The notes: generated from the sequence alone by a model not told the origin. Shown: positions 3,773 through 34,712, numbered from the stretch's first letter. The stretch: DNA of 55,148 nt from a candidate division Zixibacteria bacterium CG_4_9_14_3_um_filter_46_8 (GCA_002791595.1 PFXJ01000119.1:1-55148), one strand, 5' to 3'. A program made the numbers and translations.

Positions 3773-3920
3773 GGATTTTGATAAAGGAGGATGAGGATTA
3801 TGAATAATTATCTGGATCCATTTCAAGCCCTTCTCCATTACAGCATAAGGATGGATTACCTGGTGATATAGGGTTACCTGATAAACCGACATTCGGTTCG
3901 CGGAGACAATTACCATTTAG

Positions 3921-3960
3921 AAGGGTCGTTCCGATAAGGGATGACCCTTTAGATTTTTTA
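3921..3960 (+). terminator. Possible intrinsic terminator after the PspC/toastrack pair
   Basis: AAGGGTC(3921-3927)...GACCCTT(3943-3949) forms a 7-bp stem with a 15-nt loop, followed by TAGATTTTTTA. The loop is long, so this is weak. Confidence 0.3.
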
Positions 3961-4040
3961 GCTTCCAAGCTGATTTGATTCCGGTATTCACCAGCGAATT
4001 TGTGATTGGTGGACCAAGCGGCCGAATCCTACCAATTTTA

Positions 4041-4069
4041 TTGACTTGCGTGGGCCAAGCTATTAACTT
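4041..4069 (+). promoter_or_regulatory. Sigma70-like promoter candidate for comM
   Basis: TTGACT (4041-4046), a 17-nt spacer, then TAACTT (4064-4069), about 50 nt upstream of the ATG at 4118. The promoter consensus for this lineage is unknown. Confidence 0.3.
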
Positions 4070-4117
4070 TCGGCTTTGCCGTATTAATGGAAAGCTATCT
4101 GGGATCCCTGTAAGCGA

Positions 4118-9414: not shown

Positions 9415-10572
9415 ATGCCTTATAGAATTTACATTAGCGCCGGAGAGGCATCTGGAGATATGCACGGCGGCGGGCTGGCAGGCGCCTTAAGAGGTGCATT
9501 TCCTGATTTGGTCATTTCCGGCATGGGAGGGGATCGTATGAGGAGCGCGGGGGTGGAAGTCATTGAGGACTACCGCCAATATGCTATAATGGGTTTTGTG
9601 GGAGTTATCGCCAATTTGCATCGTTTCAGTCGATTACTCAAGAGGGTAGTCAAACATATCAGGGAAGAGAGAGTAAACCTTGTTGTCCTAATCGATTATT
9701 CCGGATTCAATTTGCGGCTTGCCAGAGCAGCGAATCGGCTCGGAGTAAAAGTTGTTTATTTTATCAGCCCACAGGTATGGGCATGGCGGACCGGAAGGGT
9801 GAAAGATATCAAAAGATATGTGGATCGAATGATAACCATCTTTCCTTTCGAAAAGGAATTCTATAGGCGGTATGGAATCGACGCCGATTATATCGGACAT
9901 CCCTTATTGGATGAAATTCCATCGTTAGATGAGGAGCAACGGAAAGCCGAAGTTCAGCGATTTCGCTTGGCGCATCAAATCAATGGGAAGAGCCCAATTT
10001 TGGGGTTATTTCCCGGATCACGGGCCAAGGAAATAGAAAAGATGCTGCCCACTATGCTTTGCACTGCCGCTATGCTTCGCAGGGATATTCCAACACTCAA
10101 TATACTAATAGCGCGGGCGCCTAATATTGATCTGGGGAGGCATATGTCGCTTGCGGAATTTGGTTGGATTCAATCGTTGGTTGTCGATAATGATACCGCA
10201 GGTGTGCTTCTTGCTTCCGACGCGGTTTTGGTCAGCAGCGGCACGACCACGGTTGAAGCCGCCTTGCATGGCACCCCGCAGGTGGTGATGTATAAGACCA
10301 GTTGGCTTACCTATAGAATAGCTCGGGCATGTGTGAAGGTGGATTATATCGCTATGGTTAATTTGATCGCCGCAAAGCGCATAGTACCTGAATTCATCCA
10401 GGACGAAGCCCAACCCGAGAGACTTCGAGATGAATTGTACCCATTATTGACAGACAATGGCGCTCGGAGAGCGGCGCGACAGGCTTCGCTTGAAATCCGC
10501 AAGCTGCTCGGAGAAAAAGGGGCATACCAGAGAGCGGCGGATATAGCCGCTCATTATATAGGAAATTGTTGA
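9415..10572 (+). CDS. lpxB: Lipid-A-disaccharide synthase
   Basis: 'IYISAGEASGDMHGGGLAGAL', 'DYSGFNLRLA', 'YFISPQVWAWRTGR' and 'VSSGTTTVEAAL' are LpxB hallmarks. Length is 385 aa. Confidence 0.9.
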   Translation: MPYRIYISAGEASGDMHGGGLAGALRGAFPDLVISGMGGDRMRSAGVEVIEDYRQYAIMGFVGVIANLHRFSRLLKRVVKHIREERVNLVVLIDYSGFNLRLARAANRLGVKVVYFISPQVWAWRTGRVKDIKRYVDRMITIFPFEKEFYRRYGIDADYIGHPLLDEIPSLDEEQRKAEVQRFRLAHQINGKSPILGLFPGSRAKEIEKMLPTMLCTAAMLRRDIPTLNILIARAPNIDLGRHMSLAEFGWIQSLVVDNDTAGVLLASDAVLVSSGTTTVEAALHGTPQVVMYKTSWLTYRIARACVKVDYIAMVNLIAAKRIVPEFIQDEAQPERLRDELYPLLTDNGARRAARQASLEIRKLLGEKGAYQRAADIAAHYIGNC

Positions 10573-13771: not shown

Positions 13772-15214
13772 ATGATAATCACGCAGACGGGGCCACAAAA
13801 CGTTGGAGACATCGCGATACACTTCGAGCATGGGAATCTGTATCTTTCTCCAGAAGAATACCAAAGAGAAAATGTGTGGAATCTGGAGCAAAAAAGACTT
13901 CTAATTGACTCAATATTTCGCGAAATGGATATTCCTAAATTTTATTTATGGAAGATTGACCAAGAAACATTGTCAGGGGGATATCCCGATGGAGAGATGA
14001 AGAAACATTACAAAGACATTCTTGAGAAAAAGCGAAGGGAAGATGATGAACCAAATCCATTTGTATATGAAGTCGTTGACGGACAGCAACGGATCAGAAC
14101 AATACTGGAATACATGGGTGTTGGGGCGAAAAGTTCCGAATACTACCGTGGAGTATGGGGGAAACAGTTCCCCGCACCTGATGATACACCATTAGCTAAG
14201 GGCAAGTGTTTTGCGCAACTTACTGCAAATCAGCAGATCAAATTCAAGGGTGGCCGCCTGACGGTAATGGTTTTGGAAAAAGCAGGAATCGATGACATTC
14301 GAGATATGTTTACACGGCTCCAAAACGGGACGCCTTTGAATGCGCAGGAAAAGCGCGATGCTATGGGGTCATCGGTAGGGCGAATAGCTCGAGATATGGC
14401 TCTTTTGCCTTTCTTCAGTAAGTCCGTAAGTTTTGGGGCAGAGCGTTCAACTCATAAGCTTGTGGCATCTCAGATGCTTCAATTGGAGCGGAAAGAAAAG
14501 ATAGTGAGCTGCACTTCCAGACAACTGGACAAACTATATGAGTTCTATAGGAAGGCACAATTTGAGAAAAGTGTTGGAGATAGAACACGAACGATCTTGA
14601 CAGTCTTGGGCAAGATATTCCCTAACAAGAACCCCCATCTTAATCAAAACTATGCCTTGAGTCTTTATTGGGCGTTATCCAGAATTACGCAATCATACAA
14701 GATCCCGGAGAACGAGTACGCGAGAATTAAGGATAATTTCGAACGATTGGACATCAACCGTCTGGAGGCAATGGGTAGGGACTTTAAAGAAGCGCCACAG
14801 GACAAGATTTATGAGGAACTGACTTTGGCAATGTCCCGCGGGAATACCGGAACTGACGGTATTTCAACTCGCCACGATATACTGTGCCAATACCTTTTCC
14901 AAGATGTTGGCCTAGAGTCCTTACCTAAACTTGACCCTCAGAGAATTTTCACACACGAGGAGAAACTAATCCTTTACCACAGGGCTAATGGATGTTGCCA
15001 ATTGTCTTTTGCCGGAAAGGTCTGCGCTCGTCAGCTAGATTTCGATGAGTCTGCTGTCGATCACATCTCTCCACATAGCAAGGGTGGTCAAACAACACTC
15101 GAGAACGGTCGCATAGCACATAAATCGTGTAACATAGCACGTGGAACGCGAGATGACTTTGATCCTGCTATTGAATGCAGTTTATTGGCCGGCAAATCGG
15201 CTTCCGAGTCCTGA
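13772..15214 (+). CDS. DUF262 (ParB/GmrSD N-terminal-like) domain fused to a C-terminal HNH endonuclease. Candidate type IV (modification-dependent) restriction/defence nuclease.
   Basis: DUF262 motifs are 'YQRENVWNLEQKRLLIDSIFREMDIPKFYLW', 'VVDGQQRIRTILEYM' and 'FTRLQNGTPLNAQEKRDA'. The C-terminal HNH is 'CCQLSF..VDHISPHSKGGQTTLENGRIAHKSCNIARG'. RBS GGGAGGAG precedes the ATG. Confidence 0.85.
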   Translation: MIITQTGPQNVGDIAIHFEHGNLYLSPEEYQRENVWNLEQKRLLIDSIFREMDIPKFYLWKIDQETLSGGYPDGEMKKHYKDILEKKRREDDEPNPFVYEVVDGQQRIRTILEYMGVGAKSSEYYRGVWGKQFPAPDDTPLAKGKCFAQLTANQQIKFKGGRLTVMVLEKAGIDDIRDMFTRLQNGTPLNAQEKRDAMGSSVGRIARDMALLPFFSKSVSFGAERSTHKLVASQMLQLERKEKIVSCTSRQLDKLYEFYRKAQFEKSVGDRTRTILTVLGKIFPNKNPHLNQNYALSLYWALSRITQSYKIPENEYARIKDNFERLDINRLEAMGRDFKEAPQDKIYEELTLAMSRGNTGTDGISTRHDILCQYLFQDVGLESLPKLDPQRIFTHEEKLILYHRANGCCQLSFAGKVCARQLDFDESAVDHISPHSKGGQTTLENGRIAHKSCNIARGTRDDFDPAIECSLLAGKSASES

Positions 15215-22614: not shown

Positions 22615-22991
22615 GGGCATGTTGAAAAGGTGGTTTCCGGACTTCCTCCACATGTCATTCCCGCGAAAGCGGGAATCTATCTCTTTGGCAAATATGGATT
22701 CCCACTTTCGGGCTTGTTGAAAAAGCCAGGAAACTCGAAAAATGATCTTAACCTTCTCCCGCGTTGTCGGGAGAAGGTGGCCCCGCCTAAAGCGGGGACG
22801 GATGAGGGCGTAACCCCATAAGCTCCCTCATCCTCCGACTCCTTCTCCCAATTAATGGGAGAAGGAGAGAAAGAAAAGAACTTTTTGAAGCACTTTCTTT
22901 TTCATGGCAGCGCAGCTTTTTCAACAAGCCCTTTCGTGGGAATGACAACTAAGTAACTTTTCCTTGCCCAATATGGTTTTTCAACACTCCC
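22615..22991. repeat. MITE-like composite palindromic element (hairpin array bounded by inverted 14-mers and flanked by TAATA)
   Basis: Four copies of GGG[C/A]NTGTTGAAAA: forward at 22615-22628 and 22710-22723, reverse at 22918-22931 and 22978-22991. Five GC-rich hairpins: ATTCCCGC-GAAA-GCGGGAAT (22657-22676), CCTTCTCCC..GGGAGAAGG (22752-22777 and again 22841-22865), CCCCGC-CTAAA-GCGGGG (22781-22797), GGATGAGGG..CCCTCATCC (22800-22833). TAATA directly flanks both ends (22610-22614 and 22992-22996). Confidence 0.6.
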
Positions 22992-23158
22992 TAATATGCT
23001 TCCCCTTCATTCAGATGATATACTTTTGAAATAGCGCGATCTTGATGCGCAAGATCGATTTTGTTTAATATAATCAATCATTCTCATAAATCAATCTAAA
23101 TTTGGTATATGTAAGGTTCCCTTTCGAAAAATCCTGAAAACTCCGGATAAAAAATTTA

Positions 23159-23186
23159 TTGCGAAATATGGTATGCTGAATATAAT
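23159..23186 (+). promoter_or_regulatory. Sigma70-like promoter candidate
   Basis: TTGCGA (23159-23164), a 16-nt spacer, then a perfect TATAAT (23181-23186). This lies 35 nt upstream of the ATG at 23221, which itself has GGAGG upstream. Confidence 0.4.
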
Positions 23187-23220
23187 TTCATCAGGAATAA
23201 TCACAATTTGGAGGCATTTT

Positions 23221-23778
23221 ATGAAACATTGGACCGTAATTGTGCTCTGTGGAATGACTATCGGAGCGCTACTCATATCCTGCGGAGGGGGCAAGGAGGA
23301 ATTTAATGTTCCCGGGATGGATATTGCCATCAAAAATGTGCCTTCCCAGAAAATCGCCTATGCCGAGATAATCGGGCCTTATTCGGAAATCGGCGATAAC
23401 CTTAACGCGCTATCTTTCTGGGGTGAGCAGAATGGCTTAGCCACAAGCACGGTGTTGATGGGGATATTCTATGATGATCCCGGTGTCGTGCCCGCATTTA
23501 AATTAAAATCTGAAGTTGCTATGACAGTCCCGATGAATACCCAACCTGATTCGGTCTATCCGGTGAGGGAGTTGCCCGAAATGACGGTGGCCTCGGTGGT
23601 TCTCAAAGGCCCCCATGATGATATTACTAAACGGTATGGCGAAGTTTTTGGCTGGGTCGCGCAAAATAATTATTCTGTGGAGGGACCGCTCTTTGAGATT
23701 TATCTCAAATGTGGCAAGGACATTCCTGAAACCGAGTATGAAACTGAGATAAGAATACCGGTGAAGAAGATTTCTTAA
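23221..23778 (+). CDS. Lipoprotein with GyrI-like (AraC effector-binding/SOUL-like) small-molecule-binding domain
   Basis: Lipobox 'GALLISCGGG'. The rest follows the GyrI-like duplicated pattern: 'IKNVPSQKIAYAEIIGPYSEI..', 'GIFYDDP', 'VRELPEMTVASVVLKGPHDDI', 'EGPLFEIYL' and 'TEIRIPVKK'. Confidence 0.65.
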   Translation: MKHWTVIVLCGMTIGALLISCGGGKEEFNVPGMDIAIKNVPSQKIAYAEIIGPYSEIGDNLNALSFWGEQNGLATSTVLMGIFYDDPGVVPAFKLKSEVAMTVPMNTQPDSVYPVRELPEMTVASVVLKGPHDDITKRYGEVFGWVAQNNYSVEGPLFEIYLKCGKDIPETEYETEIRIPVKKIS

Positions 23779-23894
23779 TTGGCGATTCTTGGGGGAACCA
23801 TTGATTTGAAGGCCAGGACTGATGCATTAGAGCATCCCCATTCTGCAAATAGATATCTATTTGAATTTGCTGAAATGGCGGTCTATTTCCGGCC

Positions 23895-24116
23895 CTAACT
23901 CAATTCCGATGAATGATGGATTTTGACTGCCTCGTCAATGGCAGCTGAAAATATTGTCTCGATATCCGTGACCAATCCGGCCTGAATCATTTTCTTGGCG
24001 CTATTCACTTCATCGAATTTCAGTTCCCTTCCAAGGCGTGTCATGGCTTCCTGTTGAAGTTCACCCAGTGCAATCAGAAAAACAATATCATCCTCTTTGA
24101 CTATGACAACACTCAT
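23895..24116 (-). CDS. Hypothetical small protein (73 aa)
   Basis: ORF only. It starts 9 nt after the stop of the preceding small ORF, in the same orientation as gatDE. I recognise no motif. Confidence 0.4.
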   Translation of the reverse strand: MSVVIVKEDDIVFLIALGELQQEAMTRLGRELKFDEVNSAKKMIQAGLVTDIETIFSAAIDEAVKIHHSSELS

Positions 24117-24125
24117 CGAAAAATC

Positions 24126-24326
24126 CTAAAGGTCAAATGCCTCTCGCAGTTTGATCGGGTTCATTTCAGATGAATAGAGTAACCCGATTTGGTCTGGTAA
24201 GACATTGATGTATCGTCGATCTAATTCCGGGAAACTATTCAATACTTGCCGAAACTTCTTCTCTTCATTTGTAATTATGTACATTAATGGGATATAATAT
24301 CTTCTGGCATCAACATCCTTGCCCAT
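24126..24326 (-). CDS. Hypothetical small protein (66 aa), possibly the 3' part of a frameshifted ~90-aa gene
   Basis: ORF only. A 35-codon ORF (24391 down to 24284, MADTQNQIFEDPDLFTVKQASRWARMLMPEDIISH) begins 9 nt after the gatE stop and overlaps this ORF in another frame. Confidence 0.4.
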   Translation of the reverse strand: MGKDVDARRYYIPLMYIITNEEKKFRQVLNSFPELDRRYINVLPDQIGLLYSSEMNPIKLREAFDL

Positions 24327-24400
24327 CTACTTGCTTGCTTGACAGTGAATAAATCAGGGTCTTCGAATATTTGATTCTGCGTGTCTGCCATGTGTACTTC

Positions 24401-26335
24401 TTATTCCCTCGGTTCGGAAGTGGCCTTATCTTTCCTCGAAGTCATCGCTGAAACCTTATCCCATAACCTCTTCCCCGGGATTGCGCCGCGGTATTTGCGC
24501 ATCACCTGGCCCATCAGATAACGCTTTTGTTTGAATGGGTCGGCGGGGAGGTTGGCGGTATCCGACAAGTCCTCGAAAATTAATTCCGCTTCTTCATCCG
24601 TGATTTTGAATATAATTTCATCAATAGCTTCACTTACTTTTCTATTCCGCTTGCATATAACTTTGAGTATGTCGAGAGTGCCTTCGCGATAGAATTCTTT
24701 TTCCCGATACGATTCCGCCAAATCCAGAAGGCGTTTATCGGTCAAATTCGCGGTTTCGAATCCTCTTCGTTGCAAGTGCTTAATTGTTTCCGCAACTAAT
24801 CTGGCCGCCCACCTGATATCTCCTGAAATTTCGACCATCTTCTGAAAAATCTCAAATCGCGGATGAACTATCAACTGGCTGACAAGTTGTTGTGAAAGCC
24901 CCGCTTCAGATAGTTTTCGACGCCGTTCCCAGGGAAATTCGGGAATCGAGGCTCTGGCATTTGAAACTCGTTTCATCTCGATAGGAATTGGGGGATGATC
25001 GGTATCAGGATACATTCGATCCGGACCCGGAAGGATTCGCTCAAAATCGGTATAGCGTCCATTCGATAGCACCTGACGTGTTTCCTGCGGCACTCCACTG
25101 ATAGCTTCCCGGCATCGGGCGGCAATTTCTTCGAGGGCGGTTACGACATCGCGTTGTGGACCCCAAGTAACTATGAGGGCATCATTGGTATTGGCATTCA
25201 ATCCCTTCCCAATGCTTTCCCATTCTCTTTCGGGGATTCCCAAGGCGGCCCGGTTGAGGCGATGAGCCAAATTAGGCGTTTTGTCAAGGCAGGCGATTAC
25301 CCGAACTCGTCCTCCAAGCTCATCGGCGAATGTCCGTTCCGGAAAAACATACCACCCAATCAAGCCGCCAAAACCCCTGATGCAGATTGCGCCGATGACG
25401 CCTCCCTGATCAACTGCCCAATGTCCCACAAATTCCGGGGTCTTAAGGAGGTGACGGGTAGCATCAGAAATGTTATAGGCGAAATTGTCGAGAGAAATAT
25501 CACGGTTGCAGAGCTCATCGCGAAGTTCGAGAAGCGATTTCTGCCGCAGGGCTTCGAAATGGGTCAGCCCGGGGATAAGGCCTATTCTCTCAACACCCTT
25601 GATTTCCACCCGATCCCCGCCGGTTATCGAGACATTGACATCCTGACGGGCGGCGCCGATTCCCCGACGCACCAATCCGGAGATACGGTTGGTCTCCGCC
25701 AGCAACTTGGTAACCTCTCCCGCCTCAATAGGGTTTCGCATATCGGGGGCGGTTATCACTTCCACCAATGGGGTTGAAAGACGGTCGGTGCGAAAAACTA
25801 TACGGTGACCGACATCACTGACCTCACGGCAGGCGTCCTCTTCGACATTAATCTGACGAATGGTAATCCTGCGATCCTTATAGGGCATCCAGCCATCGGT
25901 GCCCAGCACCGTTGTGCGCTGGAAGCCGGTAGGGATGGAACCATCAAGATATTGTTTGCGCGATATGTGAGCTTCATCGACTATTTTGCATTGAAATAAT
26001 AATGCCAATTTTATTCCAATGTCAACGGCCTGTTGATTGATAAGAAAAGGCGGGGTGTCATCCATCTCATAAGTACAAACCCGATCATTCAAGATTTCAT
26101 AGATTATTTCTTTTCGGGTCTTTTTCTCCATCAGGGCGGTGCCATCGTATTCTCCCATCTCCGAAAGCGTGGGCCGCATATGGCGAAACAGACGGGCATT
26201 GGCAGGACCTTCGACCAGGCCAACCGGACAATGGCAGAAAAGTTTTTGATGAGTATCAAGTTGCTGATGTATTTCAATCCCGCACCTGAAACCCAACCCA
26301 GCATAGTCAATTTCATTGGTATCCCAGAGGTTCAT
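24401..26335 (-). CDS. gatE: Archaeal-type Glu-tRNA(Gln) amidotransferase subunit E
   Basis: The 644-aa length fits GatE rather than GatB (~480 aa). N-terminus 'IDYAGLGFRCGIEIHQQLDTHQKLFCHCP' matches the GatE start (..LGLKVGLEIHQQLDT..KLFC.CP). Also 'DGSIPTGFQRTTVLG', 'INVEEDACRE', 'FRTDRLSTPLVEVITAPD', 'RRGIGAARQDVNVSI' and 'RVEIKGV'. Confidence 0.9.
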   Translation of the reverse strand: MNLWDTNEIDYAGLGFRCGIEIHQQLDTHQKLFCHCPVGLVEGPANARLFRHMRPTLSEMGEYDGTALMEKKTRKEIIYEILNDRVCTYEMDDTPPFLINQQAVDIGIKLALLFQCKIVDEAHISRKQYLDGSIPTGFQRTTVLGTDGWMPYKDRRITIRQINVEEDACREVSDVGHRIVFRTDRLSTPLVEVITAPDMRNPIEAGEVTKLLAETNRISGLVRRGIGAARQDVNVSITGGDRVEIKGVERIGLIPGLTHFEALRQKSLLELRDELCNRDISLDNFAYNISDATRHLLKTPEFVGHWAVDQGGVIGAICIRGFGGLIGWYVFPERTFADELGGRVRVIACLDKTPNLAHRLNRAALGIPEREWESIGKGLNANTNDALIVTWGPQRDVVTALEEIAARCREAISGVPQETRQVLSNGRYTDFERILPGPDRMYPDTDHPPIPIEMKRVSNARASIPEFPWERRRKLSEAGLSQQLVSQLIVHPRFEIFQKMVEISGDIRWAARLVAETIKHLQRRGFETANLTDKRLLDLAESYREKEFYREGTLDILKVICKRNRKVSEAIDEIIFKITDEEAELIFEDLSDTANLPADPFKQKRYLMGQVMRKYRGAIPGKRLWDKVSAMTSRKDKATSEPRE

Positions 26336-27726
26336 AACAAATAATCCCTCATAAATTGCTCCACTTCCGGCAGTCCCCCTTGAAAAACAAGATAGCCGTC
26401 CGGCCTTTCCCTCTCCGTAATCTCACCATTTATCGGGGTCAGCATTATTTTTTTGACCTCCTCACGGTCGTTGGTTTGGCCCAGGACCCAGGAGAGCTTC
26501 ATATATGCCACTTCTGGCAACATATTGGCGAGCGGCACAATCCCGCAATCCATCAAATAGCGGCCATTATCATAAACGAACATTTGCACAAAACCCCATA
26601 GAGTTTGCACGGTCATATATATATGCACGCCCTGGCCAGTCGCCCAGCGGATTACATTGTAAAGAGGGCGGTTGATATGGCCAAGACCTGTTCCAGCTAT
26701 GACTATGCCCTCGTAGCCGGCCCCAACAATCGCCCGAATGAGGTTTTCCTGCATATTGGGGTAATAATAAAGGATGGTGACTTTCTCGTTAAAAGTTGGG
26801 ACCAATTTGAACTCCTTACCGGATCCTCCGCGAGGATTAAAATCCCTTCTAAGAGGTTTAACTCCATTTTCCCGGTCAACAGTGGCCAGCGGGATATCTC
26901 CTATGGTTCTAAAAGCGCTTCGGTATGATGAATGCATTTTACGGACGCGGGTTCCGCGATGCAAAAGTCCATATTTATCGGAAGTAGGCCCAAACATACA
27001 TACCATTATTTCTGCAATCGGTCCGGTGGCGGCCATAGCGGCGTTAATCAGATTTCGGGCGGCATCGGATGATGGCCTATCGCTGGAACGCTGTGAACCC
27101 ACCAGGATAATCGGCACCGGCGGATTTTGCACCATAAACGTCAGTATGGCCGCTGTGTGGTGCATAGTGTCGGTTCCATGTCCTATGATGATCCCTTCCG
27201 CACCGTCGTTGATTTCCTTGTAAATCCTTTGGGCAAGCGGAATATATTGTGCCGGACCCATATCCTCTGAGAATATCCCGAAAACTTTATGAGTCTGCAA
27301 ATTGCAGATATCTGCCAATTCAGGCACCGCGCCGAAAAGCTCGCCTGGGGAAAAGGCGGGGATGACCGCCCCGGTGGTATAGTCCAATCGAGAAGCGATG
27401 GTGCCTCCCGTTCCCAACAATACAACATTGTGCTTCTCGGGATCGTAAGGGAATTCCTTTTCAGGAACTTTGTAATGCCCTTCGCTTCGGCCTGTGTTCT
27501 CGATGGCGCTGATTCGTTCCGCACGAACCCCGACATTGTAGCCAGTGTCCAGCTTCAATACGATGTGGAAGGTATCCGCCATTTCATTACGGGGTAGAAG
27601 CACTCCTTCAAATGTGCCGGATTCGGATAGAACCTTCACTCGATCCCAAACCCGGACATCAAATTTCTTCAGTGTCTCCAATCCGCTATTGCGGTAACCT
27701 TTATATGGATCATCAACTGTTGCCAA
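26332..27726 (-). CDS. gatD: Archaeal-type Glu-tRNA(Gln) amidotransferase subunit D (asparaginase-like)
   Basis: N-terminal GatD-specific beta domain (VRVWDRVKVLSESGTFEGVLLPRNE..HIVLKLDTGYNVGV). Asparaginase core 'VVLLGTGGTIASRLDYTTGAV', 'IIIGHGTDTMHHTA' and 'ILVGSQRSSDRPSSDA'. The stop overlaps the gatE start (ATGA). Confidence 0.9.
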   Translation of the reverse strand: MATVDDPYKGYRNSGLETLKKFDVRVWDRVKVLSESGTFEGVLLPRNEMADTFHIVLKLDTGYNVGVRAERISAIENTGRSEGHYKVPEKEFPYDPEKHNVVLLGTGGTIASRLDYTTGAVIPAFSPGELFGAVPELADICNLQTHKVFGIFSEDMGPAQYIPLAQRIYKEINDGAEGIIIGHGTDTMHHTAAILTFMVQNPPVPIILVGSQRSSDRPSSDAARNLINAAMAATGPIAEIMVCMFGPTSDKYGLLHRGTRVRKMHSSYRSAFRTIGDIPLATVDRENGVKPLRRDFNPRGGSGKEFKLVPTFNEKVTILYYYPNMQENLIRAIVGAGYEGIVIAGTGLGHINRPLYNVIRWATGQGVHIYMTVQTLWGFVQMFVYDNGRYLMDCGIVPLANMLPEVAYMKLSWVLGQTNDREEVKKIMLTPINGEITERERPDGYLVFQGGLPEVEQFMRDYLL

Positions 27727-27933
27727 TATTACTCCAGAAAGTAACGGATTTCATAAATCAAATTCTGAATAGTCTGCTTTGCAAAAGATATGGATTCATA
27801 GCAAATAAAAGCATCGGTCCAATTTATCAGGTGAGCATAATCAATTATTGAGCGGGAAGATGTTCCGGAGCGACTCTATTATTCGGGTGTCTCATTTGCC
27901 ATAAGGGGGAATTTTCACTCCAAGCAACCCGAG

Positions 27934-28899
27934 TTATAGCCTCTTAATCAATGCCGGAATTACTTCCAGCGCATTCCCCACTATCCCCCAGGTAGCAACT
28001 TTGAAAATGGGCGCGTCGGCATCCCTATTGATAGCCACAATATATTTAGAGGATTGCATCCCAGCCAAATGCTGGATTGCCCCGGATATCCCACAGGCGA
28101 TATAAAGCTTGGGATTCACCGTCTTTCCGGTTTGTCCTACCTGGTTTTTGTATGGCACCCAGCCGGCATCGACTATGGCTCGCGACGCCCCAGCGGCCGC
28201 ACCTAATTTAGCGGCTAATTCCTCAATCAATTTATAGTTAGCGGCTTCTTTCAAGCCTCTCCCGCCCGAAACGATGATATCGGCTTCGGTCAAAGGCACC
28301 TGGCCCCCCCCCTCGACGATTGATTCTCTGACCGAAGAGCCGGAGCTATGTTTCGCCGCATCAAAAGCATATTCAACAATCTGGGCATTTCTTGGGTTGT
28401 CGCCGGTTACTCCGAATGCTTTGGGGCGTAGGGTAATGATTTTCGGTCTCTGAGTGCCGAAGCCGAATTTCAGAAGAGCATTCCCGCCATATCCCGGATG
28501 TTCCACTATCAAATTGCCGGCATCGAATTCGATGGCCGTAGCATCTGGAATCAAACCGGTCTTCAATACAGCCGCCAGACGGCTAAATAGAGCTTTGCCA
28601 TAGAAAGTTGCGCTTCCCAAAATGAACCCTGCCGATTCGGTCTTGGCAATATCCACCAGAATACTGCAGTAAATCTGGTCATTAAAATATTTCAAAGTGC
28701 TGTGCTGGCAGATAATGACTTTATCAGCGCCCCCCAGGGCACATTCAGAAGCCGACTCAGAAACCGAATCGCCAATCAAAACAGCAGTCAGCTTAACACT
28801 AAACTTATCTGCAATCTTGTGGCCCTCAGACAGAACTTCAAATGAGATAGGGGAAGGTTTTCCAGCTTTGGAATCGCAATAAACTAAGACATCAGACAC
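27934..28899 (-). CDS. etfA: Electron transfer flavoprotein alpha subunit (EtfA/FixB-like)
   Basis: 'VSGGRGL', 'LGAAAGASRAIVDAGW', 'QVGQTGKTVNPKLYIACGISGAIQHLAGM' and 'IVAINRDADAPIF' are EtfA hallmarks. Confidence 0.88.
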   Translation of the reverse strand: MSDVLVYCDSKAGKPSPISFEVLSEGHKIADKFSVKLTAVLIGDSVSESASECALGGADKVIICQHSTLKYFNDQIYCSILVDIAKTESAGFILGSATFYGKALFSRLAAVLKTGLIPDATAIEFDAGNLIVEHPGYGGNALLKFGFGTQRPKIITLRPKAFGVTGDNPRNAQIVEYAFDAAKHSSGSSVRESIVEGGGQVPLTEADIIVSGGRGLKEAANYKLIEELAAKLGAAAGASRAIVDAGWVPYKNQVGQTGKTVNPKLYIACGISGAIQHLAGMQSSKYIVAINRDADAPIFKVATWGIVGNALEVIPALIKRL

Positions 28900-28957
28900 A
28901 AGGTTTTCTCCTGCTAATTTTTAATCAAGGCCAAATATACGGAATCCATAGATGATG

Positions 28958-29947
28958 TCAAAGGGTTTTAGCCATTTTCTGATTTGTGAAGTTTTCTCGA
29001 TAAGCGCTCAATTTACTTAATATGCTATCGTAATTATCAAGATGGAAAACTTCCTGCCTTAGCTGTGAATTACCTGATAGACCTCGAGTGTACCAGACTA
29101 TGAATTTGCGCATAATTTTTATTCCCTTCAACGCGCCATAGAAATCAATGGTAAGATGGAAATAATCGAGCATCATATCTAATTTCTGGAGAGGCGACGG
29201 TTCGGCAAGTAAATTGCCATCCTGAAGATAGGATTTTATTCTTCTGAAGATATGAGGGTCACCCATGGCGGCGCGGCCTATCATCAGGCCTGAAGCGCCG
29301 GTTTCGTCAAGGGATTTGCGGGCATCCTCGGCAGACCAGATATCGCCGCTATATATCAGAGGGATACTTAAAAACCGTACGGTATCGCCAACCAATTTTC
29401 GATCCGGCCTGGACGAGAAACCCTGAATTACAGTTCGCGGATGAATCACAATTGCGGCGACACCTACATCCTGAAGACGGCGGGAAAGCTCCGGGAATAT
29501 AATCGAATCCGAATCCCAGCCGGAACGAAGCTTAGCCGTTACCGGAATGGGCGAGTTCTTGACCAAAACCGCCATTATCCGGGTGGCGAGTTGGGGTTGG
29601 CGCAATAAAGCGCCGCCCGCGCCCTGTTTGACCACTTTCTTCACCGGGCACCCCAGGTTGAAATCTATAAAGTCTGGCTGCACCCTTAGAGCGGTCTCCA
29701 AACCCTTCAGCACAAGTTCAGGATCAGAACCAAACAGCTGAATCCCGATAGGCCTCTCCTCTTCGCCAAATTTAATGTATTTCATGGTTTTATTATCCGA
29801 ATGGCCCAGCCCCGCTACAGAAACCATTTCTGAAAATGTTGCCGAGGCCCCATACCGTCGGCAAACACGCCGGAATATCGAATCTGATATTCCCGCCAGG
29901 GGCGCTGAAAATAGAAAACCATTGATGTTTAAGTTGCCAATTTTCAT
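28958..29947 (-). CDS. dusB: tRNA-dihydrouridine synthase
   Basis: 'LFSAPLAGISDSIFRRVCRRYGA', 'IQLFGSDP', 'IDFNLGCPVKKVV', 'GAGGALL', 'VTAKLRSGWD' and 'VIHPRT'. Confidence 0.9.
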   Translation of the reverse strand: MKIGNLNINGFLFSAPLAGISDSIFRRVCRRYGASATFSEMVSVAGLGHSDNKTMKYIKFGEEERPIGIQLFGSDPELVLKGLETALRVQPDFIDFNLGCPVKKVVKQGAGGALLRQPQLATRIMAVLVKNSPIPVTAKLRSGWDSDSIIFPELSRRLQDVGVAAIVIHPRTVIQGFSSRPDRKLVGDTVRFLSIPLIYSGDIWSAEDARKSLDETGASGLMIGRAAMGDPHIFRRIKSYLQDGNLLAEPSPLQKLDMMLDYFHLTIDFYGALKGIKIMRKFIVWYTRGLSGNSQLRQEVFHLDNYDSILSKLSAYRENFTNQKMAKTL

Positions 29948-30059
29948 TCCGACAATATATTAAAACTGTAGGAAATGCGCAATATTCGAGCTTCTGGGAA
30001 TAAAATTTAAAGCATCTATAGTTAATTTTGGCTCGAATTTCCTTTGAATGGAGGGTAAA

Positions 30060-30755
30060 ATGCCGGAGATTATCGTAAAATTCGGAGATAAAATTCTTGA
30101 GAAGTTTGTGACTGAAAAAGGACGCATTTCAATCGGGCGTTCTGCCGACAATGATGTTGTTCTGGATAACAAGGGGGTTTCTCGAAGGCATTTGATAATC
30201 GAATTCAAGGGGCAAACGGCGGTGGCCATTGACAATGAATCCCTGAATGGAACTTTCATCAATAATAGGCGGATTTCTGAAGAGATAATTAATGACTCGG
30301 ATGTTATCACTGTGGGGAAATTCGATCTTATCTTCCACGCCCAATCGGCTTCGACCTCTCTGGCCTCCGGCGAGGTTGTTTTGGATGGGACTATGGTCTT
30401 GCAGACCAAACGTCAGAAGGAATTAATCGAACGAGATCGGGCGGATAAAAAAATCACCGCTGATTCGGGCGGCCCGCTTCTGGTGGAAGAATCGGGAAGT
30501 GAGAATGCCAAGTATCTTGTGGATGGCATAATCACCATAGGGAAATCCAAATTAGCAACAATCAAAGCTAAAGGATTCCTTTTATCGGGCCTGCAAGCCA
30601 AAATTGTTCCCGATGGTGAGCGTAATATGATTGTAAATCTCGGCAAGAAAGGCAAAGTCAAAATAAATGGCGACGGGATTGAAAAACATATTTTGAAAAA
30701 TGGTGATATTATTAATGTAGGCAAATCAACCTTCAGGTACCTTCAGGGGCAATAA
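30060..30755 (+). CDS. FHA domain protein (N-terminal canonical FHA plus C-terminal FHA-like module)
   Basis: 'ISIGRSADNDVVLDNKGVSRRHLIIEF..NESLNGTFINNRRI..DSDVITVGKFDLIF'. The C-terminal 'ITIGKS..VNLGKKGKVKINGDGI..LKNGDIINVGKSTFRY' is FHA-like. The ATG at 30060 is preceded by GGAGGG. Confidence 0.85.
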   Translation: MPEIIVKFGDKILEKFVTEKGRISIGRSADNDVVLDNKGVSRRHLIIEFKGQTAVAIDNESLNGTFINNRRISEEIINDSDVITVGKFDLIFHAQSASTSLASGEVVLDGTMVLQTKRQKELIERDRADKKITADSGGPLLVEESGSENAKYLVDGIITIGKSKLATIKAKGFLLSGLQAKIVPDGERNMIVNLGKKGKVKINGDGIEKHILKNGDIINVGKSTFRYLQGQ

Positions 30756-30767
30756 GGAATTGGACTG

Positions 30768-31496
30768 ATGAAGATCGGCTTTTTCTCTGACGTGCATGCA
30801 AATTTGGAAGCGCTTACGGCAGTATTGGAAAATGCCCGCTCTGAGAAGGTAGATAAACTATTTTTCCTGGGAGATGCGGTTGGTTATGGTCCTAATCCTA
30901 ATGAATGCGTGGAATTGATTTGTGCCAATGCTTCAGCCTGCCTTATGGGGAATCACGACTATGCGGCGCTGGGAATGCTTGATACTTCAAGCTTTAACCG
31001 TTATGCCAAAGAGGCCATTGACTTCACTCAAGCAGTCCTGACCAAACAGAATAGAAACTGCCTGATGGAATTTGAGAGGGAATACCTGTTTGAGGATTTC
31101 CATATGGTCCATTCCACTCCAACCAAGCCCAACCAATGGGATTATATTATCACTTTGGATGACGCTGAGCAAAATTTTCCTACTCTCAAGAGGCGAATCG
31201 GCCTGATCGGCCATTCGCATTTTCCCGCCATAGTGTGTAAAGCAAATGGCAGTTTTCCTGTTTTAGTCCGCAGTGATAGTATCAAGATAGAGAAAGACCA
31301 GCAGTTCATTATAAATATAGGCAGTGTGGGGCAACCCCGTGATAATAACCCGGACAGTTGCTATATGTTGTATGATTCCCCGAGCAATATGGCGCGTCTT
31401 AAGCGCGTAAAATACGACATAAAAATAACCCAGGATAAAATGCGCAAAGCCGGTTTATCCGAATATTTGATCAACAGGCTGGAGAAAGGAAGATAA
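30768..31496 (+). CDS. Calcineurin-like metallophosphoesterase (candidate protein phosphatase of the module)
   Basis: All five MPE motifs are present: 'SDVHAN', 'FLGDAVGYGP', 'GNHD', 'MVHSTP' and 'IGHSHFP'. Confidence 0.85.
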   Translation: MKIGFFSDVHANLEALTAVLENARSEKVDKLFFLGDAVGYGPNPNECVELICANASACLMGNHDYAALGMLDTSSFNRYAKEAIDFTQAVLTKQNRNCLMEFEREYLFEDFHMVHSTPTKPNQWDYIITLDDAEQNFPTLKRRIGLIGHSHFPAIVCKANGSFPVLVRSDSIKIEKDQQFIINIGSVGQPRDNNPDSCYMLYDSPSNMARLKRVKYDIKITQDKMRKAGLSEYLINRLEKGR

Positions 31497-31500
31497 AATA

Positions 31501-32457
31501 ATGGGGCCCAGAATCGTGACCACATTCATGGCGACCGTTATCCTGCTGACATTTATTTTGGGAGATTCTCTTTCCAGCAACGAAGCGATGGTCAGGACTA
31601 TCTCGAAAGGAGAGACCATCAGTTTCCTGGCAATCAAGATTTATGGATTCTATAACGAGGAAATTGCTTTATTAATAGCAGATGCCAATCCCAAAATTGG
31701 GGATTTGAATCGGGTTCAAGCAGGGGATAAAATCGTTTTTCCGCAACTTGTGGATTCCAAGGACAAGCCATATTGCCTTCGGACATCGGCATCTTTGGCG
31801 GTAGTCACCTATCTATCAGGAAAGTCATTTCTCTTGAAAAGTAAGGAAAAGGAATGGAAGAGCCTGGATGCCAACACCATTCTGACTCCGGGCGACAAAT
31901 TAAAAACAGGGAAAGGCGCATTGGTGGAATTGGTTGTCAATCATACTGATGTGATGCGGCTTTCCTCTAATACAGAACTTTTGATTGAAAGGTTGGCTGA
32001 CAAAACGGGAGGGCCTGAATCATCATTTAGGATAAGCGTGGGAAAATTCTGGGCGAAAATAAAATCCTATGTGGAGAGAAGCGGCAAATTCGAAGTTGGA
32101 TTTCCCACTGCGGTGGCGGCAGTGCAGGGCACTGTTTATCAAGCCGAACTTATGGCAGATAGCACCGCCAATATCAAGGTTTATCGTGGAGAGGTGAAGG
32201 TAGCGGCAAAACCGGTGGAGGGACAGGAATCGGCGACAACAGGGTCCAAGATCGGTCCTCCTCGGCAGGTTAGTGGCCCAAAGCAAGTTTCGATGCAGCA
32301 ATGGGTGAAAATTGTGCGCGAGATGCAGCAATTTAGTTTCGGGCCCGGGAAGCCGCCCGGCGATCCCGAAAGCTTCACCGAGCAATGGCTGGGGAACTGG
32401 GAAAAATTCAATCAAGAGAGAGATGCACTATTCAATGATGGAAGTGCTAATCGTTAG
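31501..32457 (+). CDS. Exported LysM + FecR domain protein
   Basis: N-terminal hydrophobic signal/anchor. LysM 'ISKGETISFLAIKIYG..ADANP..NRVQAGDKIVFP'. FecR-like 'WKSLDANTILTPGDKLKTGKGALVELVV..VMRLSSNTELLI' and 'GFPTAVAAVQGTVYQAE'. Confidence 0.75.
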   Translation: MGPRIVTTFMATVILLTFILGDSLSSNEAMVRTISKGETISFLAIKIYGFYNEEIALLIADANPKIGDLNRVQAGDKIVFPQLVDSKDKPYCLRTSASLAVVTYLSGKSFLLKSKEKEWKSLDANTILTPGDKLKTGKGALVELVVNHTDVMRLSSNTELLIERLADKTGGPESSFRISVGKFWAKIKSYVERSGKFEVGFPTAVAAVQGTVYQAELMADSTANIKVYRGEVKVAAKPVEGQESATTGSKIGPPRQVSGPKQVSMQQWVKIVREMQQFSFGPGKPPGDPESFTEQWLGNWEKFNQERDALFNDGSANR

Positions 32458-32468
32458 CATTGATAGTT

Positions 32469-34712
32469 ATGGCAGACGTTAGACGAAAACAAATCACTAT
32501 CTTATTATCCATTCTGATTACAGTTTTCATCATTTCGATGGCGCTGGAGAGGCCAAAGCATATCGAGAAATTCGAACTGGCGATCGATGATATTATTTAC
32601 AGCCTGGGGATTCAAAAAGGGAAATTAGACGATATTGTTATCGTTGCCATTGATAATCAGACAGTGAATGCGATCGGTCGCTGGCCATGGCACAGAGATC
32701 GTTTGGCGGAATTGATCTCCGGAATCGCACTGCGGAATCCGAAAGTCATCGGCCTGGATATTCTACTTCAGCGCGATTTCGAGGAAGACACTCTGGGAAA
32801 TACAGACCGTCTCGCATCCGCCATTGAAGCGGCCGGCAACGTGGTCGTGCCATCTTATTTTACACTATCAAAAGGCGGGAAAATCGTTGATGATTCCCCT
32901 CCCGACTTTATCTATTACAATTCCTTTGTGTTATTCGATAACCCGATGACCATTGGCCTATATCCGATTCCTCGGGCAATCGAAGTTTATTCTCCCGCCG
33001 AGCAAATCGGCAGGGCTTCAGCCGCCATAGGCCACGTCAACCTGATTCCGGATTCCGATGGAAAGATTCGTTGGGAGCCGTTGGTCGTCTCTTTCAATTC
33101 GCATTATTTCCCATCATTCGCCATGCAAGTTGCCCGCCTGTACCGAAACGCAAGTCCGGGAGGAATCAAACTCGTGAGCGGGAAGGGTATCCAGCTGGGA
33201 ACACAAGAGATCCGAACTGATGCCGCTATGCGGATACCGATTAGTTATTCCGGCGGCTATAATACTTTCAAATATATTTCAGCCAGCGATATCTTTGAGG
33301 GGGATCTGCCGGAGGATGCGTTCGAAAACAAAATTGTGCTCGTTGGATACGTTGCGGCAGACAATCGGGATGTCGTTGCTACTCCTCTCACCGAAGTGTT
33401 GCCTGGCGTCGAAAAGCAAGCCTCCGTTGTGGAGAACCTGATCAACGGCAATATTTTGAAGGGAATAAAATCAAGCGCATGGCTCAACTTACTAATCCTG
33501 ATACTGTTCGGAGTCTTAGGGCCGATTATCCTGCCGCGTCTGGCGCTGCAATATCGAGTGATTTCGATCGTGGGCAGCCTCTTCCTTTTATTTAACATCG
33601 AATATTATATGTTTGTCAATTATGAGATTATGCTCCAATTCTTTTACCCCGCATTCGAGTTGGTGCTTTTTCTTGGCATTAGTCCGCTTCTGGCAAACGA
33701 CAGAACCGGAATGGGCTCGAAGATGCGGGCGGCACCGCTTAAAGATACTATGTTTGGAGGCAGGGATTTGAGGGGGGCAACCCAGAATATGGGGAATCTC
33801 GAACAGACCATTGTAACTTCGACTGCGGACAAAATTGAATACATGGGCAGATATAAAATCGAGAGGGTGCTGGGAAAAGGAGCGATGGGGACAGTATATA
33901 AGGGAGTTGACCCAGCCATAGGCCGTCCCGTGGCGATCAAGACCATACGTATTGATCGACTTGATTCTGACGCCGAGGCCGCCGAAATGCTCAAGCGGCT
34001 GAGCCAGGAAGCACATTCCGCTGGCAAGCTTTCTCACCCGAATATAATTATCATTTATGATGTTGGCCAGGAAAGGAATCTTCAATACATTGCTATGGAA
34101 TATCTTGAAGGTATGACCTTGGAGGAACTGCTGAAACAGCGCAAAGTGCTTGATTTCTATAAATCGGCGCTGATACTCAAACAAACCGCCGATGCTCTTG
34201 CTTACGCCCATAAACAAAATGTTGTGCATCGCGATATCAAGCCGGCAAATATAATGGTTCTTCCTGATGATACTGTCAAGGTTATGGATTTCGGAATTGC
34301 GCGTGCTGATAATATGCACATGACTCAAACCGGCATTACCGTAGGGACTCCCAACTATATCTCACCGGAACAGCTTCAAGGTGGCGATGTCGACGGGCGT
34401 GCCGATATATTTTCCGCCGGTGTGGTTCTTTATGAGGCTATCACGGGCGTCAAACCATTCCGTGGCGATAATATATCGTCATTAGTCGTCAATATTCTGA
34501 ATACGGTTCCTGCAAAACCATCTCAGGTAAATCCTGAAATCCCCGGTGAACTTGATATTATAACTATGAAGGCTCTCGAGAAGAATCGCGAGGTCCGCTT
34601 CCAGGACGCCGCTGATTTCGCAAATGACCTGCGGACTTTTCTTGGTGAAAAAGTGCAGACAAGCGAGCGCAACAACCTGAATGATTCCGCGCCAAACAAA
34701 GTCATCATCTGA
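32469..34712 (+). CDS. CHASE2 sensor domain Ser/Thr protein kinase
   Basis: CHASE2 motifs 'IVIVAIDNQTVNAIGRWPWHRDRLAELI', 'IGLDILL' and 'DSDGKIRW', followed by 3 TM segments. Hanks kinase motifs 'LGKGAMGTVYKG', 'VAIKTI', 'HRDIKPANIMV', 'DFGIA' and 'GTPNYISPEQ'. The ATG is at 32469 (the track start at 32460 is a TTG). Confidence 0.9.
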   Translation: MADVRRKQITILLSILITVFIISMALERPKHIEKFELAIDDIIYSLGIQKGKLDDIVIVAIDNQTVNAIGRWPWHRDRLAELISGIALRNPKVIGLDILLQRDFEEDTLGNTDRLASAIEAAGNVVVPSYFTLSKGGKIVDDSPPDFIYYNSFVLFDNPMTIGLYPIPRAIEVYSPAEQIGRASAAIGHVNLIPDSDGKIRWEPLVVSFNSHYFPSFAMQVARLYRNASPGGIKLVSGKGIQLGTQEIRTDAAMRIPISYSGGYNTFKYISASDIFEGDLPEDAFENKIVLVGYVAADNRDVVATPLTEVLPGVEKQASVVENLINGNILKGIKSSAWLNLLILILFGVLGPIILPRLALQYRVISIVGSLFLLFNIEYYMFVNYEIMLQFFYPAFELVLFLGISPLLANDRTGMGSKMRAAPLKDTMFGGRDLRGATQNMGNLEQTIVTSTADKIEYMGRYKIERVLGKGAMGTVYKGVDPAIGRPVAIKTIRIDRLDSDAEAAEMLKRLSQEAHSAGKLSHPNIIIIYDVGQERNLQYIAMEYLEGMTLEELLKQRKVLDFYKSALILKQTADALAYAHKQNVVHRDIKPANIMVLPDDTVKVMDFGIARADNMHMTQTGITVGTPNYISPEQLQGGDVDGRADIFSAGVVLYEAITGVKPFRGDNISSLVVNILNTVPAKPSQVNPEIPGELDIITMKALEKNREVRFQDAADFANDLRTFLGEKVQTSERNNLNDSAPNKVII

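Follow-up and report, generated by a model that had tools for sequence, protein, structure and literature searches.

A resident gatD-gatE operon in a Zixibacteria-lineage bacterium, predicted to encode an archaeal-type Glu-tRNA(Gln) amidotransferase and belonging to a large bacterial GatDE clade

How does an amidotransferase that the literature assigns to archaea come to stand among bacterial genes, and what would it do there? The question is raised by a stretch of DNA of 55,148 nucleotides from candidate division Zixibacteria bacterium CG_4_9_14_3_um_filter_46_8 (GCA_002791595.1, PFXJ01000119.1:1-55148), referred to below as the window, which carries at positions 24401-27726 two overlapping genes for GatD and GatE, the subunits of the Glu-tRNA(Gln) amidotransferase GatDE. 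This enzyme has been described as 'an archaeal signature protein' (2008, PMC2330236) and as one that 'occurs exclusively in archaea' (2009, PMC2811023), and more recently GatCAB has been listed as the bacterial enzyme and GatDE as the archaeal one (2020, PMC7373986). The accessible reviews up to 2022 call GatDE archaeal, and why archaea use two amidotransferases and bacteria only GatCAB has been listed as an open question (2008 review, PMC2330236). We conclude, with a probability of roughly 0.82, that the window holds a resident, functional gatD-gatE operon, chromosomal in a diderm bacterium of the Zixibacteria lineage, that the operon encodes a predicted alpha2-beta2 Glu-tRNA(Gln) amidotransferase, and that its family made an old entry from a Thermoplasmatota-like archaeon and has since been inherited largely vertically.

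The gene gatD (26332..27726, minus strand) starts with TTG and encodes 464 residues, the putative glutaminase subunit of the enzyme, and gatE (24401..26335, minus strand) starts with ATG and encodes 644 residues, the putative tRNA-dependent kinase/amidase subunit. The TGA stop of gatD overlaps the ATG start of gatE in an ATGA (26332..26335, minus strand; read ttgttATGAacc). A preliminary description of this DNA had named the pair GatD and GatE from the sequence, quoting the peptides GTGGTIASRLDYTTGAV and GIEIHQQLDTHQKLFCHCP and the same overlap, and coordinates, peptides and overlap have all been recovered in the translations. Its further claim that GatD combines an asparaginase core with a GatD-specific N-terminal domain is borne out by three Pfam families above their gathering scores: GatD_N (PF18195, 58.3 bits, cut-off 25.7) covers residues 25-76 (27499..27654, minus strand), and the type I asparaginase-like core at residues 100-428 (26443..27429, minus strand) is made up of PF00710 Asparaginase (residues 100-286, 183 bits) and PF17763 Asparaginase_C (residues 315-428, 105 bits). 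In the hidden Markov model (HMM) search that had been proposed as a check, the best assignments have been the GatD and GatE equivalogs of NCBIfam. GatD scores 494.7 bits against NF003217 (cut-off 310) and 487.6 against TIGR02153 gatD_arch (cut-off 324); it also clears the type I asparaginase subfamily model TIGR00519 (360 bits, cut-off 260.5), as expected for GatD, and its equivalog score is the higher one. GatE scores 512.9 bits against NF003107 (cut-off 456) and 451.6 against TIGR00134 gatE_arch (cut-off 319.55), whereas all six GatB models remain under their cut-offs, the top one at 161.1 bits versus 338.

The size and layout of GatE, which the preliminary description had set apart from the ~480-residue GatB by an insertion and a tail, lead to the same assignment. 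The Pfam GatB_N match is stretched over residues 18-456 for just 275 model positions because a GatE-specific insertion is present, placed approximately at residues ~275-400 (25136..25513, minus strand; boundaries inferred). GatB models and structures stop aligning at about residue 272-276, whereas the alignment with archaeal GatE runs unbroken through the insertion. A YqeY-like helical tail domain follows at residues 496-624 (24464..24850, minus strand; PF02637 GatB_Yqey, 29.8 bits, cut-off 27), the part of GatE that has been described as binding the D-loop (PMC2811023). The top structural matches in the PDB are likewise archaeal GatDE, namely 1ZQ1_A (E = 3.8e-115) and 2D6F_A (E = 2.3e-110) for GatD, and 2D6F_C (E = 1.2e-96) and 1ZQ1_C (E = 5.5e-94) for GatE, the latter two contiguous over residues 6-624; GatB structures match GatE over residues 96-276 only. 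As far as homology can tell, the open reading frames are an intact GatD and GatE, and their overlap is in keeping with partner genes of one predicted complex. Two other identities have been considered and ruled out. GatE is not the GatB of a GatCAB, given the failing GatB models, its 644 residues and its asparaginase-type GatD partner, and neither gatA nor gatC has been found in the family annotation of the window proteins; GatD is not a stand-alone type I L-asparaginase, given GatD_N, the higher GatD score and the overlap with gatE.

The residues on which the archaeal enzyme depends are retained as well. Essential in the enzyme of Methanothermobacter thermautotrophicus are His15, Glu157 and Glu184 of GatE as Mg2+ ligands and, in GatD, a Thr nucleophile and a triad of Thr, Lys and Asp (PMC2330236). 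The three ligands correspond to H23, E165 and E192 of the window GatE, invariant in all 83 aligned sequences, and T109, T185, D186 and K263 of the window GatD, invariant in 55 of 55 aligned sequences, align with T101, T177, D178 and K254 of M. thermautotrophicus (numbering counted along the 2D6F sequence). With all seven catalytic residues conserved in the window pair and invariant among its relatives, its chemistry is almost certainly that of GatDE; enzymatic activity, tRNA substrate and direction of transfer are what we infer from such comparisons. The mechanism would follow steps borrowed from the archaeal enzymes, for which the support here consists of residue conservation. Glutamate would first be charged onto tRNA-Gln by a glutamyl-tRNA synthetase of the non-discriminating type. 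The tRNA would then be held by the cradle, insertion and YqeY-like tail domains of GatE, which would phosphorylate the gamma-carboxyl with ATP and Mg2+ via H23, E165 and E192. GatD would hydrolyse Gln or Asn, with T109 as nucleophile and T185-D186-K263 as triad, and the released ammonia would pass through an intramolecular tunnel to GatE, yielding Gln-tRNA(Gln).

The locus is not a one-off and belongs to a large bacterial clade already annotated as GatD/GatE. For a survey of the subfamily, one genome per GTDB species has been scanned with the motifs KQYLDGSI and RHMRPTLSE, which were taken from an alignment of GatE homologues and from which the GatE of Methanothermobacter and Pyrococcus differ; at least 596 species-representative genomes encode the subfamily. 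Among the 80 closest loci, 76 come from bacterial metagenome-assembled genomes (MAGs) of more than 15 labelled groups, and the other four are labelled Thermoplasmatota. The labels, which are those of the depositors and in some cases doubtful, include Zixibacteria, Aminicenantes/Acidobacteriota, Planctomycetota/Phycisphaerae, Ignavibacteria, Melioribacteraceae, Kapaibacterium, Chlorobiota, Bacteroidota, Cytophagia, Rhodothermaceae, Caldisericia, Fermentibacteria, Aegiribacteria, KSB1, Krumholzibacteriota, Cloacimonetes, Hatepunaea, Myxococcota and Fibrobacteraceae. Several of the 80 loci lie on contigs of 1-3.8 Mb, including a 3.8-Mb chromosome. A homology search with GatE has returned thousands of matches, with a top tier at 63-72% identity and a next tier at ~50%, and in both tiers there are proteins of Zixibacteria, Aminicenantes, a Clostridiales MAG and Ca. 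Desulfaltia that NCBI already calls GatE, a name that many matches bear at JGI as well. The preliminary description, which took the pair for an inter-domain transfer, had named a large, already annotated bacterial clade as the finding that would speak against it, and with at least 596 genomes and the GatE names at NCBI and JGI such a clade is indeed there. Some depositor labels are at odds with the GatE tree: 'Eubacteriales' (L030) falls inside Aminicenantes, two 'Ignavibacteriaceae' sequences (L049, L083) are nearly identical to Zixibacteria ones (L031, L050), and the labels 'Patescibacteria group' and 'Rickettsiales' look unlikely (label problems also concern L021, L043 and L071). Mis-binning or automatic mislabelling is the likely cause.

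Gene order varies across the clade. The two genes adjoin each other in most of the 80 loci, with gatE before gatD in about 51 of them and gatD before gatE in the window and in loci L004 and L024, while nine loci, including the Zixibacteria loci L027, L031 and L050, have gatE with gatD missing on either side for 3 kb or more, so that the subunit genes are unlinked in some lineages, other Zixibacteria included. Clustering of the neighbours at the 80 loci has revealed no conserved family beyond the gatD/gatE pairing (none in more than seven loci) and none related to translation; recurrent at bacterial loci are sigma-54 activators, HPF, Wza-like exporters, PhoH and glutamine synthetase. The last of these, glnA, stands beside gatD and gatE in archaeal sister loci (L035 12008-13309; L084 8239-9753, between both; L085 6962-8263) and beside gatE in five bacterial loci (L021 1-1392 and four others), an adjacency that hints at a connection with amide-donor supply.

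Trees have been built by neighbour joining from GatE, GatD and the concatenated proteins, with two distance measures and two additional archaeal sister sequences, and rooted on Methanothermobacter, Pyrococcus and a frameshift-joined Natrinema sequence that serves as an approximate outgroup only. The haloarchaeal gatE in question (Natrinema thermotolerans CP031304.1, a 987-kb replicon, 2899-4862) is split over two frames by a frameshift near residue 330 and has no coding sequence in the gene table of the plasmid, and would be a pseudogene or a sequencing error. The subfamily of Thermoplasmatota plus bacteria is recovered in 100% of bootstrap replicates, as is the monophyly of a Thermoplasmatota group typified by L035, and two further Thermoplasmatota sequences (L064/L070) stand outside bacteria plus the L035 group with 85-93%. 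With at least 120 clusters at 71% identity or above, the L035-type group is a large one, and its truly archaeal nature is shown by L085, where gatD-glnA-gatE has PriS and Orc1/Cdc6 as neighbours; by NCBIfam annotation, the flanks of Thermoplasmatota-labelled loci (GlmS, an aminotransferase, GlnA) are not diagnostic of domain. Within the clade, clusters largely follow taxonomy. An old archaeal origin is thus supported by a subfamily with a basal Thermoplasmatota lineage, and most likely, to judge from these trees, the subfamily entered bacteria long ago from a Thermoplasmatota-like archaeon and was then inherited largely vertically, Zixibacteria included. Of the transfer proposed in the preliminary description, the archaeal ultimate origin therefore stands, and a singular or recent event does not; the phylogeny it had called for favours an archaeal root and places the bacterial sequences in a large mixed subfamily.

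Several points weigh against the conclusion that we have drawn. The first concerns the substrate: archaeal GatDE reads the A1-U72 pair of tRNA-Gln, and bacterial tRNA-Gln has U1-A72 (PMC2330236, PMC9499178). A second lies in the tail of GatE, where a GXXAXGX motif reported for archaeal GatE has been implicated in the discrimination of Gln and Asn tRNAs (PMC2811023); it reads GMGAMGP in M. thermautotrophicus and GMGAMGL in Pyrococcus abyssi, and at the same site the window has PFKQKRY (residues 600-606). Neighbour joining was the sole method behind the trees, their three outgroups are distant and their sequences were picked by similarity to the query, and bacteria alone are monophyletic in just 48-68% of replicates for GatE, 3-8% for GatD and 45-48% for the concatenated proteins, so that bacterial monophyly is poorly supported and a single transfer is not told from several; the L035 group might even have taken its genes back from bacteria. 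The tetranucleotide profile of the gatDE region correlates with that of the whole window at 0.855 (mean 0.902, 8th percentile), within the range and on its low side. A search of the literature has found no activity data for any bacterial GatDE, and if the genome held both GatCAB and a glutaminyl-tRNA synthetase (GlnRS), GatDE would perhaps be superfluous or serve some other purpose.

It is from the first two of these points that the best-surviving alternative draws, namely that the clade has changed its job and acts either as a dual Glu/Asp amidotransferase replacing GatCAB or on another acyl-tRNA or non-translational substrate. Neither the bacterial members nor the three Thermoplasmatota members with an aligned tail have the GXXAXGX motif, which is thus missing across the whole mixed subfamily, where the site is variable and often occupied by a basic segment, and the pair at which bacterial and archaeal tRNA-Gln differ is the very one that GatDE reads. 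Beside this pair GatE has a short basic loop where bacterial GatB has a 3-10 turn (PMC2811023); the loop reads RRGIG in the window, KRGLG in M. thermautotrophicus and P. abyssi, and RTGxG in about half of the bacterial sequences, in which its second basic residue has thus become Thr. A changed job nevertheless appears unlikely. All kinase and glutaminase residues are conserved, the GatE-specific insertion domain, for which a clash with non-discriminating aspartyl-tRNA synthetase is predicted (PMC2330236), has been kept, and glnA as a recurrent neighbour fits a glutamine-linked role. Since Thermoplasmatota members lack the motif too, its loss is a trait of the subfamily and no evidence against membership, and these bona fide archaea presumably make Gln-tRNA(Gln).

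As to how a Glu-tRNA(Gln) amidotransferase of this kind would cope with bacterial tRNA, we put forward tentatively, as a possibility that we hold to be somewhat less probable than its opposite, that GatDE is the working and perhaps the only Glu-tRNA(Gln) amidotransferase of these bacteria, with re-tuned tRNA recognition. The re-tuning would come about through the divergent tail without GXXAXGX and the altered loop next to the 1:72 pair; alternatively, the tRNA-Gln of the host would have shifted towards archaeal identity elements. With GatDE as the main route, GatCAB would either have disappeared or serve Asn-tRNA(Asn) only, as it does in archaea. Genes that bear on this (gatA/B/C, glnS, gltX and tRNA-Gln) are absent from the window, from the 80 related loci and from ~20 kb of extra flank of an 86.8-kb sister contig, and tRNA scans of the window, these loci and extended contig flanks have found no tRNA-Gln. 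One of the related loci, from an unclassified bacterial MAG (L010), has a tRNA-Glu(CUC) at 9726-9802, 165 bp upstream of gatE; it is ordinary (G1-C72, U8, an 11-nt D-loop, no encoded CCA), and the ARAGORN call has one extra 5' base.

The surroundings of the operon are those of a bacterial genome. The flanks, by family annotation, are bacterial and diderm, with YifB, an LpxC-FabZ fusion, LpxA, LpxB, WaaA, LpxK, NadB and GuaA, and the window further holds signal peptidase I, two type IX secretion system (T9SS) sorting-domain proteins, DusB, an EtfA-like protein, a cluster with FHA domains and a Ser/Thr kinase, transaldolase, PilM, the PilQ secretin, MutS2 and MltG; the Gram-negative-type host of the preliminary description is confirmed by its lipid A genes, signal peptidase I, T9SS proteins, PilM and PilQ. 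Named relatives of MutS2 are nearly all Zixibacteria, the nearest at 66% identity, and the nearest GatE, also at 66%, belongs to a Zixibacteria MAG (MBD3234054.1). Both nearest relatives being Zixibacteria, the host is, by this measure, a Zixibacteria-lineage diderm bacterium.

That this organism received the pair across domains recently, in a transfer confined to its lineage, would be compatible with the archaeal origin of the family, with the highest GC content of the contig at 25-26 kb (0.534) and with the low tetranucleotide correlation mentioned above. It is nonetheless highly improbable. The closest relatives are bacterial, at 66% identity to Zixibacteria compared with 43-47% to Thermoplasmatota and 32-34% to the archaeal outgroups, GatE and the housekeeping protein MutS2 are equally diverged from the nearest Zixibacteria relative, and the order etfA-gatD-gatE is common to the window and the Zixibacteria locus L004, whose GatD is 80% identical. 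In codon usage and third-position GC content (GC3), gatD and gatE do not stand out from the contig (codon distance 0.076-0.077 versus a contig mean of 0.101; GC3 0.51-0.52 versus 0.50 +/- 0.03). The compositional comparison suggested in the preliminary description has come out in favour of residency for codon usage and GC3, with the tetranucleotide value within the range, if on its low side. No mobile-element genes adjoin gatDE in the window annotation, and searches of plasmids and phages have found no copy of the subfamily. Nothing indicates a recent transfer into the genome.

At the other extreme, bacterial GatDE could descend vertically from LUCA (the last universal common ancestor) with no transfer at all; a LUCA with both amidotransferases has been proposed by Sheppard and Söll (as cited in PMC9499178), and the spread of the clade over many bacterial groups, with clusters that largely follow taxonomy, would agree with it. 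We consider this reading just as improbable as a recent transfer, as the bacterial sequences are nested in archaeal diversity: bacterial GatE is 45-46% identical to that of Thermoplasmatota, and Thermoplasmatota GatE only 37% to that of other Euryarchaeota, in line with the bootstrap values of 100% for the mixed subfamily and 85-93% for the basal position of L064/L070. Reviews moreover give GatCAB to bacteria and GatDE to archaea, which would be unexpected if GatDE were ancestral in bacteria.

The linkage of gatDE to bacterial genes recurs in four independent assemblies from different samples (L001, L086, L087 and L089), with bacterial genes on both sides of the pair in the first three and downstream of gatE in the fourth, and an identical GatE occurs in three samples besides that of the window. 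L001 agrees with window positions 22931-30975 at 99.95% identity. L086 (the 86.8-kb contig) and L087 keep the order of the window, Dus-EtfA-GatD-GatE-GyrI-T9SS cargo-signal peptidase I, L086 continuing to LpxK and WaaA, and L089 runs from GatE through to GuaA. The agreement of L001 with the window ends near 22,930, 1.5 kb beyond gatE, at a point within the right arm of an inverted repeat of 29 nt. As the four assemblies carry the pair with bacterial genes, gatDE is no chimeric join, a possibility that the preliminary description had wished to see excluded. That an archaeal gatDE fragment was joined to bacterial DNA in assembly or binning, as the description of GatDE as archaea-only and the departure of L001 ~1.5 kb downstream of gatE might hint, is hardly credible in view of these four assemblies, of a divergence that lies inside a repeat past the next gene where the three other assemblies back the order of the window, of a composition that fits the contig, and of relatives whose bacterial contigs reach 3.8 Mb.

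The repeat itself lies in the intergenic region 22698-22943 between a T9SS cargo gene and the GyrI-like gene, with arms at 22698-22726 and 22915-22943 that are 86% complementary, and is surrounded by nested inverted and direct repeats. Past its right arm L001 continues with Band_7, NfeD, DsrC and ATP-sulfurylase genes, and the three other assemblies keep the order of the window. It looks like a small repeat element that has caused a rearrangement or a misjoin local to assembly L001.

On the other side of the operon, upstream of gatD, the EtfA-like gene (27934..28899, minus strand) lies directly adjacent after a gap of 207 bp, followed by dusB for tRNA-dihydrouridine synthase B (28958..29947, minus strand; TIGR00737, 309.7 bits, cut-off 293.3); both are co-oriented with gatDE, as had been noted before, and are context rather than parts of the enzyme. 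The EtfA-like protein has ETF-alpha-type NCBIfam matches that all stay under their cut-offs, and Pfam ETF and ETF_alpha match the identical protein in L001 and L086. No EtfB partner is found near it, and an ortholog (68%) stands upstream of gatD in the Zixibacteria locus L004 (6351-7316). The gene may be co-transcribed with gatDE; a scan for promoters and terminators has found no convincing promoter in the etfA-gatD gap and no minus-strand terminator. The association with dusB is not kept, as DusB has been found neither in L004 nor as a recurrent neighbour among the 80 loci. A tRNA scan of the window has found no tRNA gene, and the window has no Rfam match. Divergent from dusB is a signalling cluster (30048-34712, plus strand) with an FHA-domain protein, a metallophosphoesterase, a FecR/LipL45-like protein and a CHASE2 Ser/Thr kinase of 750 residues; L086 and L087, both sister assemblies, have the cluster as well. 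Between lpxK and nadB, where the lipid A cluster ends, a protein of 480 residues with GmrSD_N and HNH domains (13772-15214, plus strand) resembles type IV restriction enzymes; it has no NCBIfam match, and its Pfam domains have been taken from the identical protein in L086.

The restriction of GatDE to archaea does not hold, since the host of the window is bacterial as are 76 of the 80 closest species genomes, and it is a claim about distribution rather than a structural criterion. The databases hold an intact GatDE subfamily with conserved catalytic residues in several hundred bacterial species of more than 15 labelled groups, mostly uncultivated, and the gatDE locus itself is no discovery, being a well-verified Zixibacteria example, linked to genes for lipid A, the T9SS and type IV pili, of a distribution that the reviews have not absorbed. 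In the accessible literature, with subscription journals mostly outside the scope of the search, no description of a bacterial GatDE has been found and the phrase 'bacterial GatDE' has no match; the Melioribacter genome paper makes no mention of GatDE. Both the divergence of tRNA-Gln between the domains and the absence of any GlnRS acquisition by archaea have been put down to the strict reading of the archaeal A1-U72 pair by GatDE. The locus thus offers an entry point to the action of GatDE on bacterial tRNA-Gln and to a bacterial adoption of the archaeal division into GatDE for Gln and GatCAB for Asn. Should GatDE be the main route in these bacteria, through re-tuning or a shifted tRNA-Gln, its status as an 'archaeal signature protein' would be overturned, and the clade would show, as an experiment of nature, how the identity of tRNA-Gln co-evolves with its amidotransferase.

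Among the known systems, the type I L-asparaginases of the AnsA family are related to one subunit only, sharing core and catalytic residues with GatD, from which they are set apart by the extra GatD_N, the higher GatD equivalog scores and the translational coupling to GatE. GatB of bacterial GatCAB (Staphylococcus aureus 3IP4/2F2A, Aquifex 3H0L) is a paralogue of GatE, with a common kinase/amidase core in the cradle domain and a YqeY-like tail. It aligns with the window GatE only in part (residues 96-276, E = 2e-28), lacks the insertion domain and has GatC and a GatA of the amidase family as its partners, whereas the window GatE is partnered with an asparaginase-type GatD; and it reads U1-A72 via the 3-10 turn that GatE lacks (PMC2811023).

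The archaeal enzymes of known structure, those of M. thermautotrophicus (2D6F, with tRNA-Gln) and P. abyssi (1ZQ1), have the same two subunits with the same domains as the window pair and align with it over the full length (E = 1e-110 to 1e-115 for GatD and 1e-94 to 1e-96 for GatE), sharing identical Mg2+ ligands, the Thr and Thr-Asp-Lys residues and a basic (K/R)RGxG loop. They differ in that their GatE is only 32-34% identical to that of the window, whose host is bacterial, in the tail, where GMGAMG(P/L) is replaced by PFKQKRY, and in the substrate, A1-U72 tRNA-Gln in their case and a presumed bacterial one with U1-A72 expected in that of the window. Closer is the GatDE of Thermoplasmatota (CP070751.1 'Thermoplasmata archaeon' and CAZGOD010000001.1), a member of the same subfamily at 43-47% identity, which shares KQYLDGSI, RHMRPTLSE and the loss of GXXAXGX with the window. 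Its hosts are archaeal, with PriS and Orc1/Cdc6 nearby, and its gatD and gatE stand beside glnA on opposite strands, unlike the overlapping, co-directional genes of the window. Aminicenantes, Phycisphaerae, Ignavibacteria and Bacteroidota, among others, have annotated GatE/GatD of the same clade, and the annotated Zixibacteria GatDE (MBD3234054.1) matches the window at 66% in GatE, 80% in GatD and 68% in EtfA, in the same order etfA-gatD-gatE.

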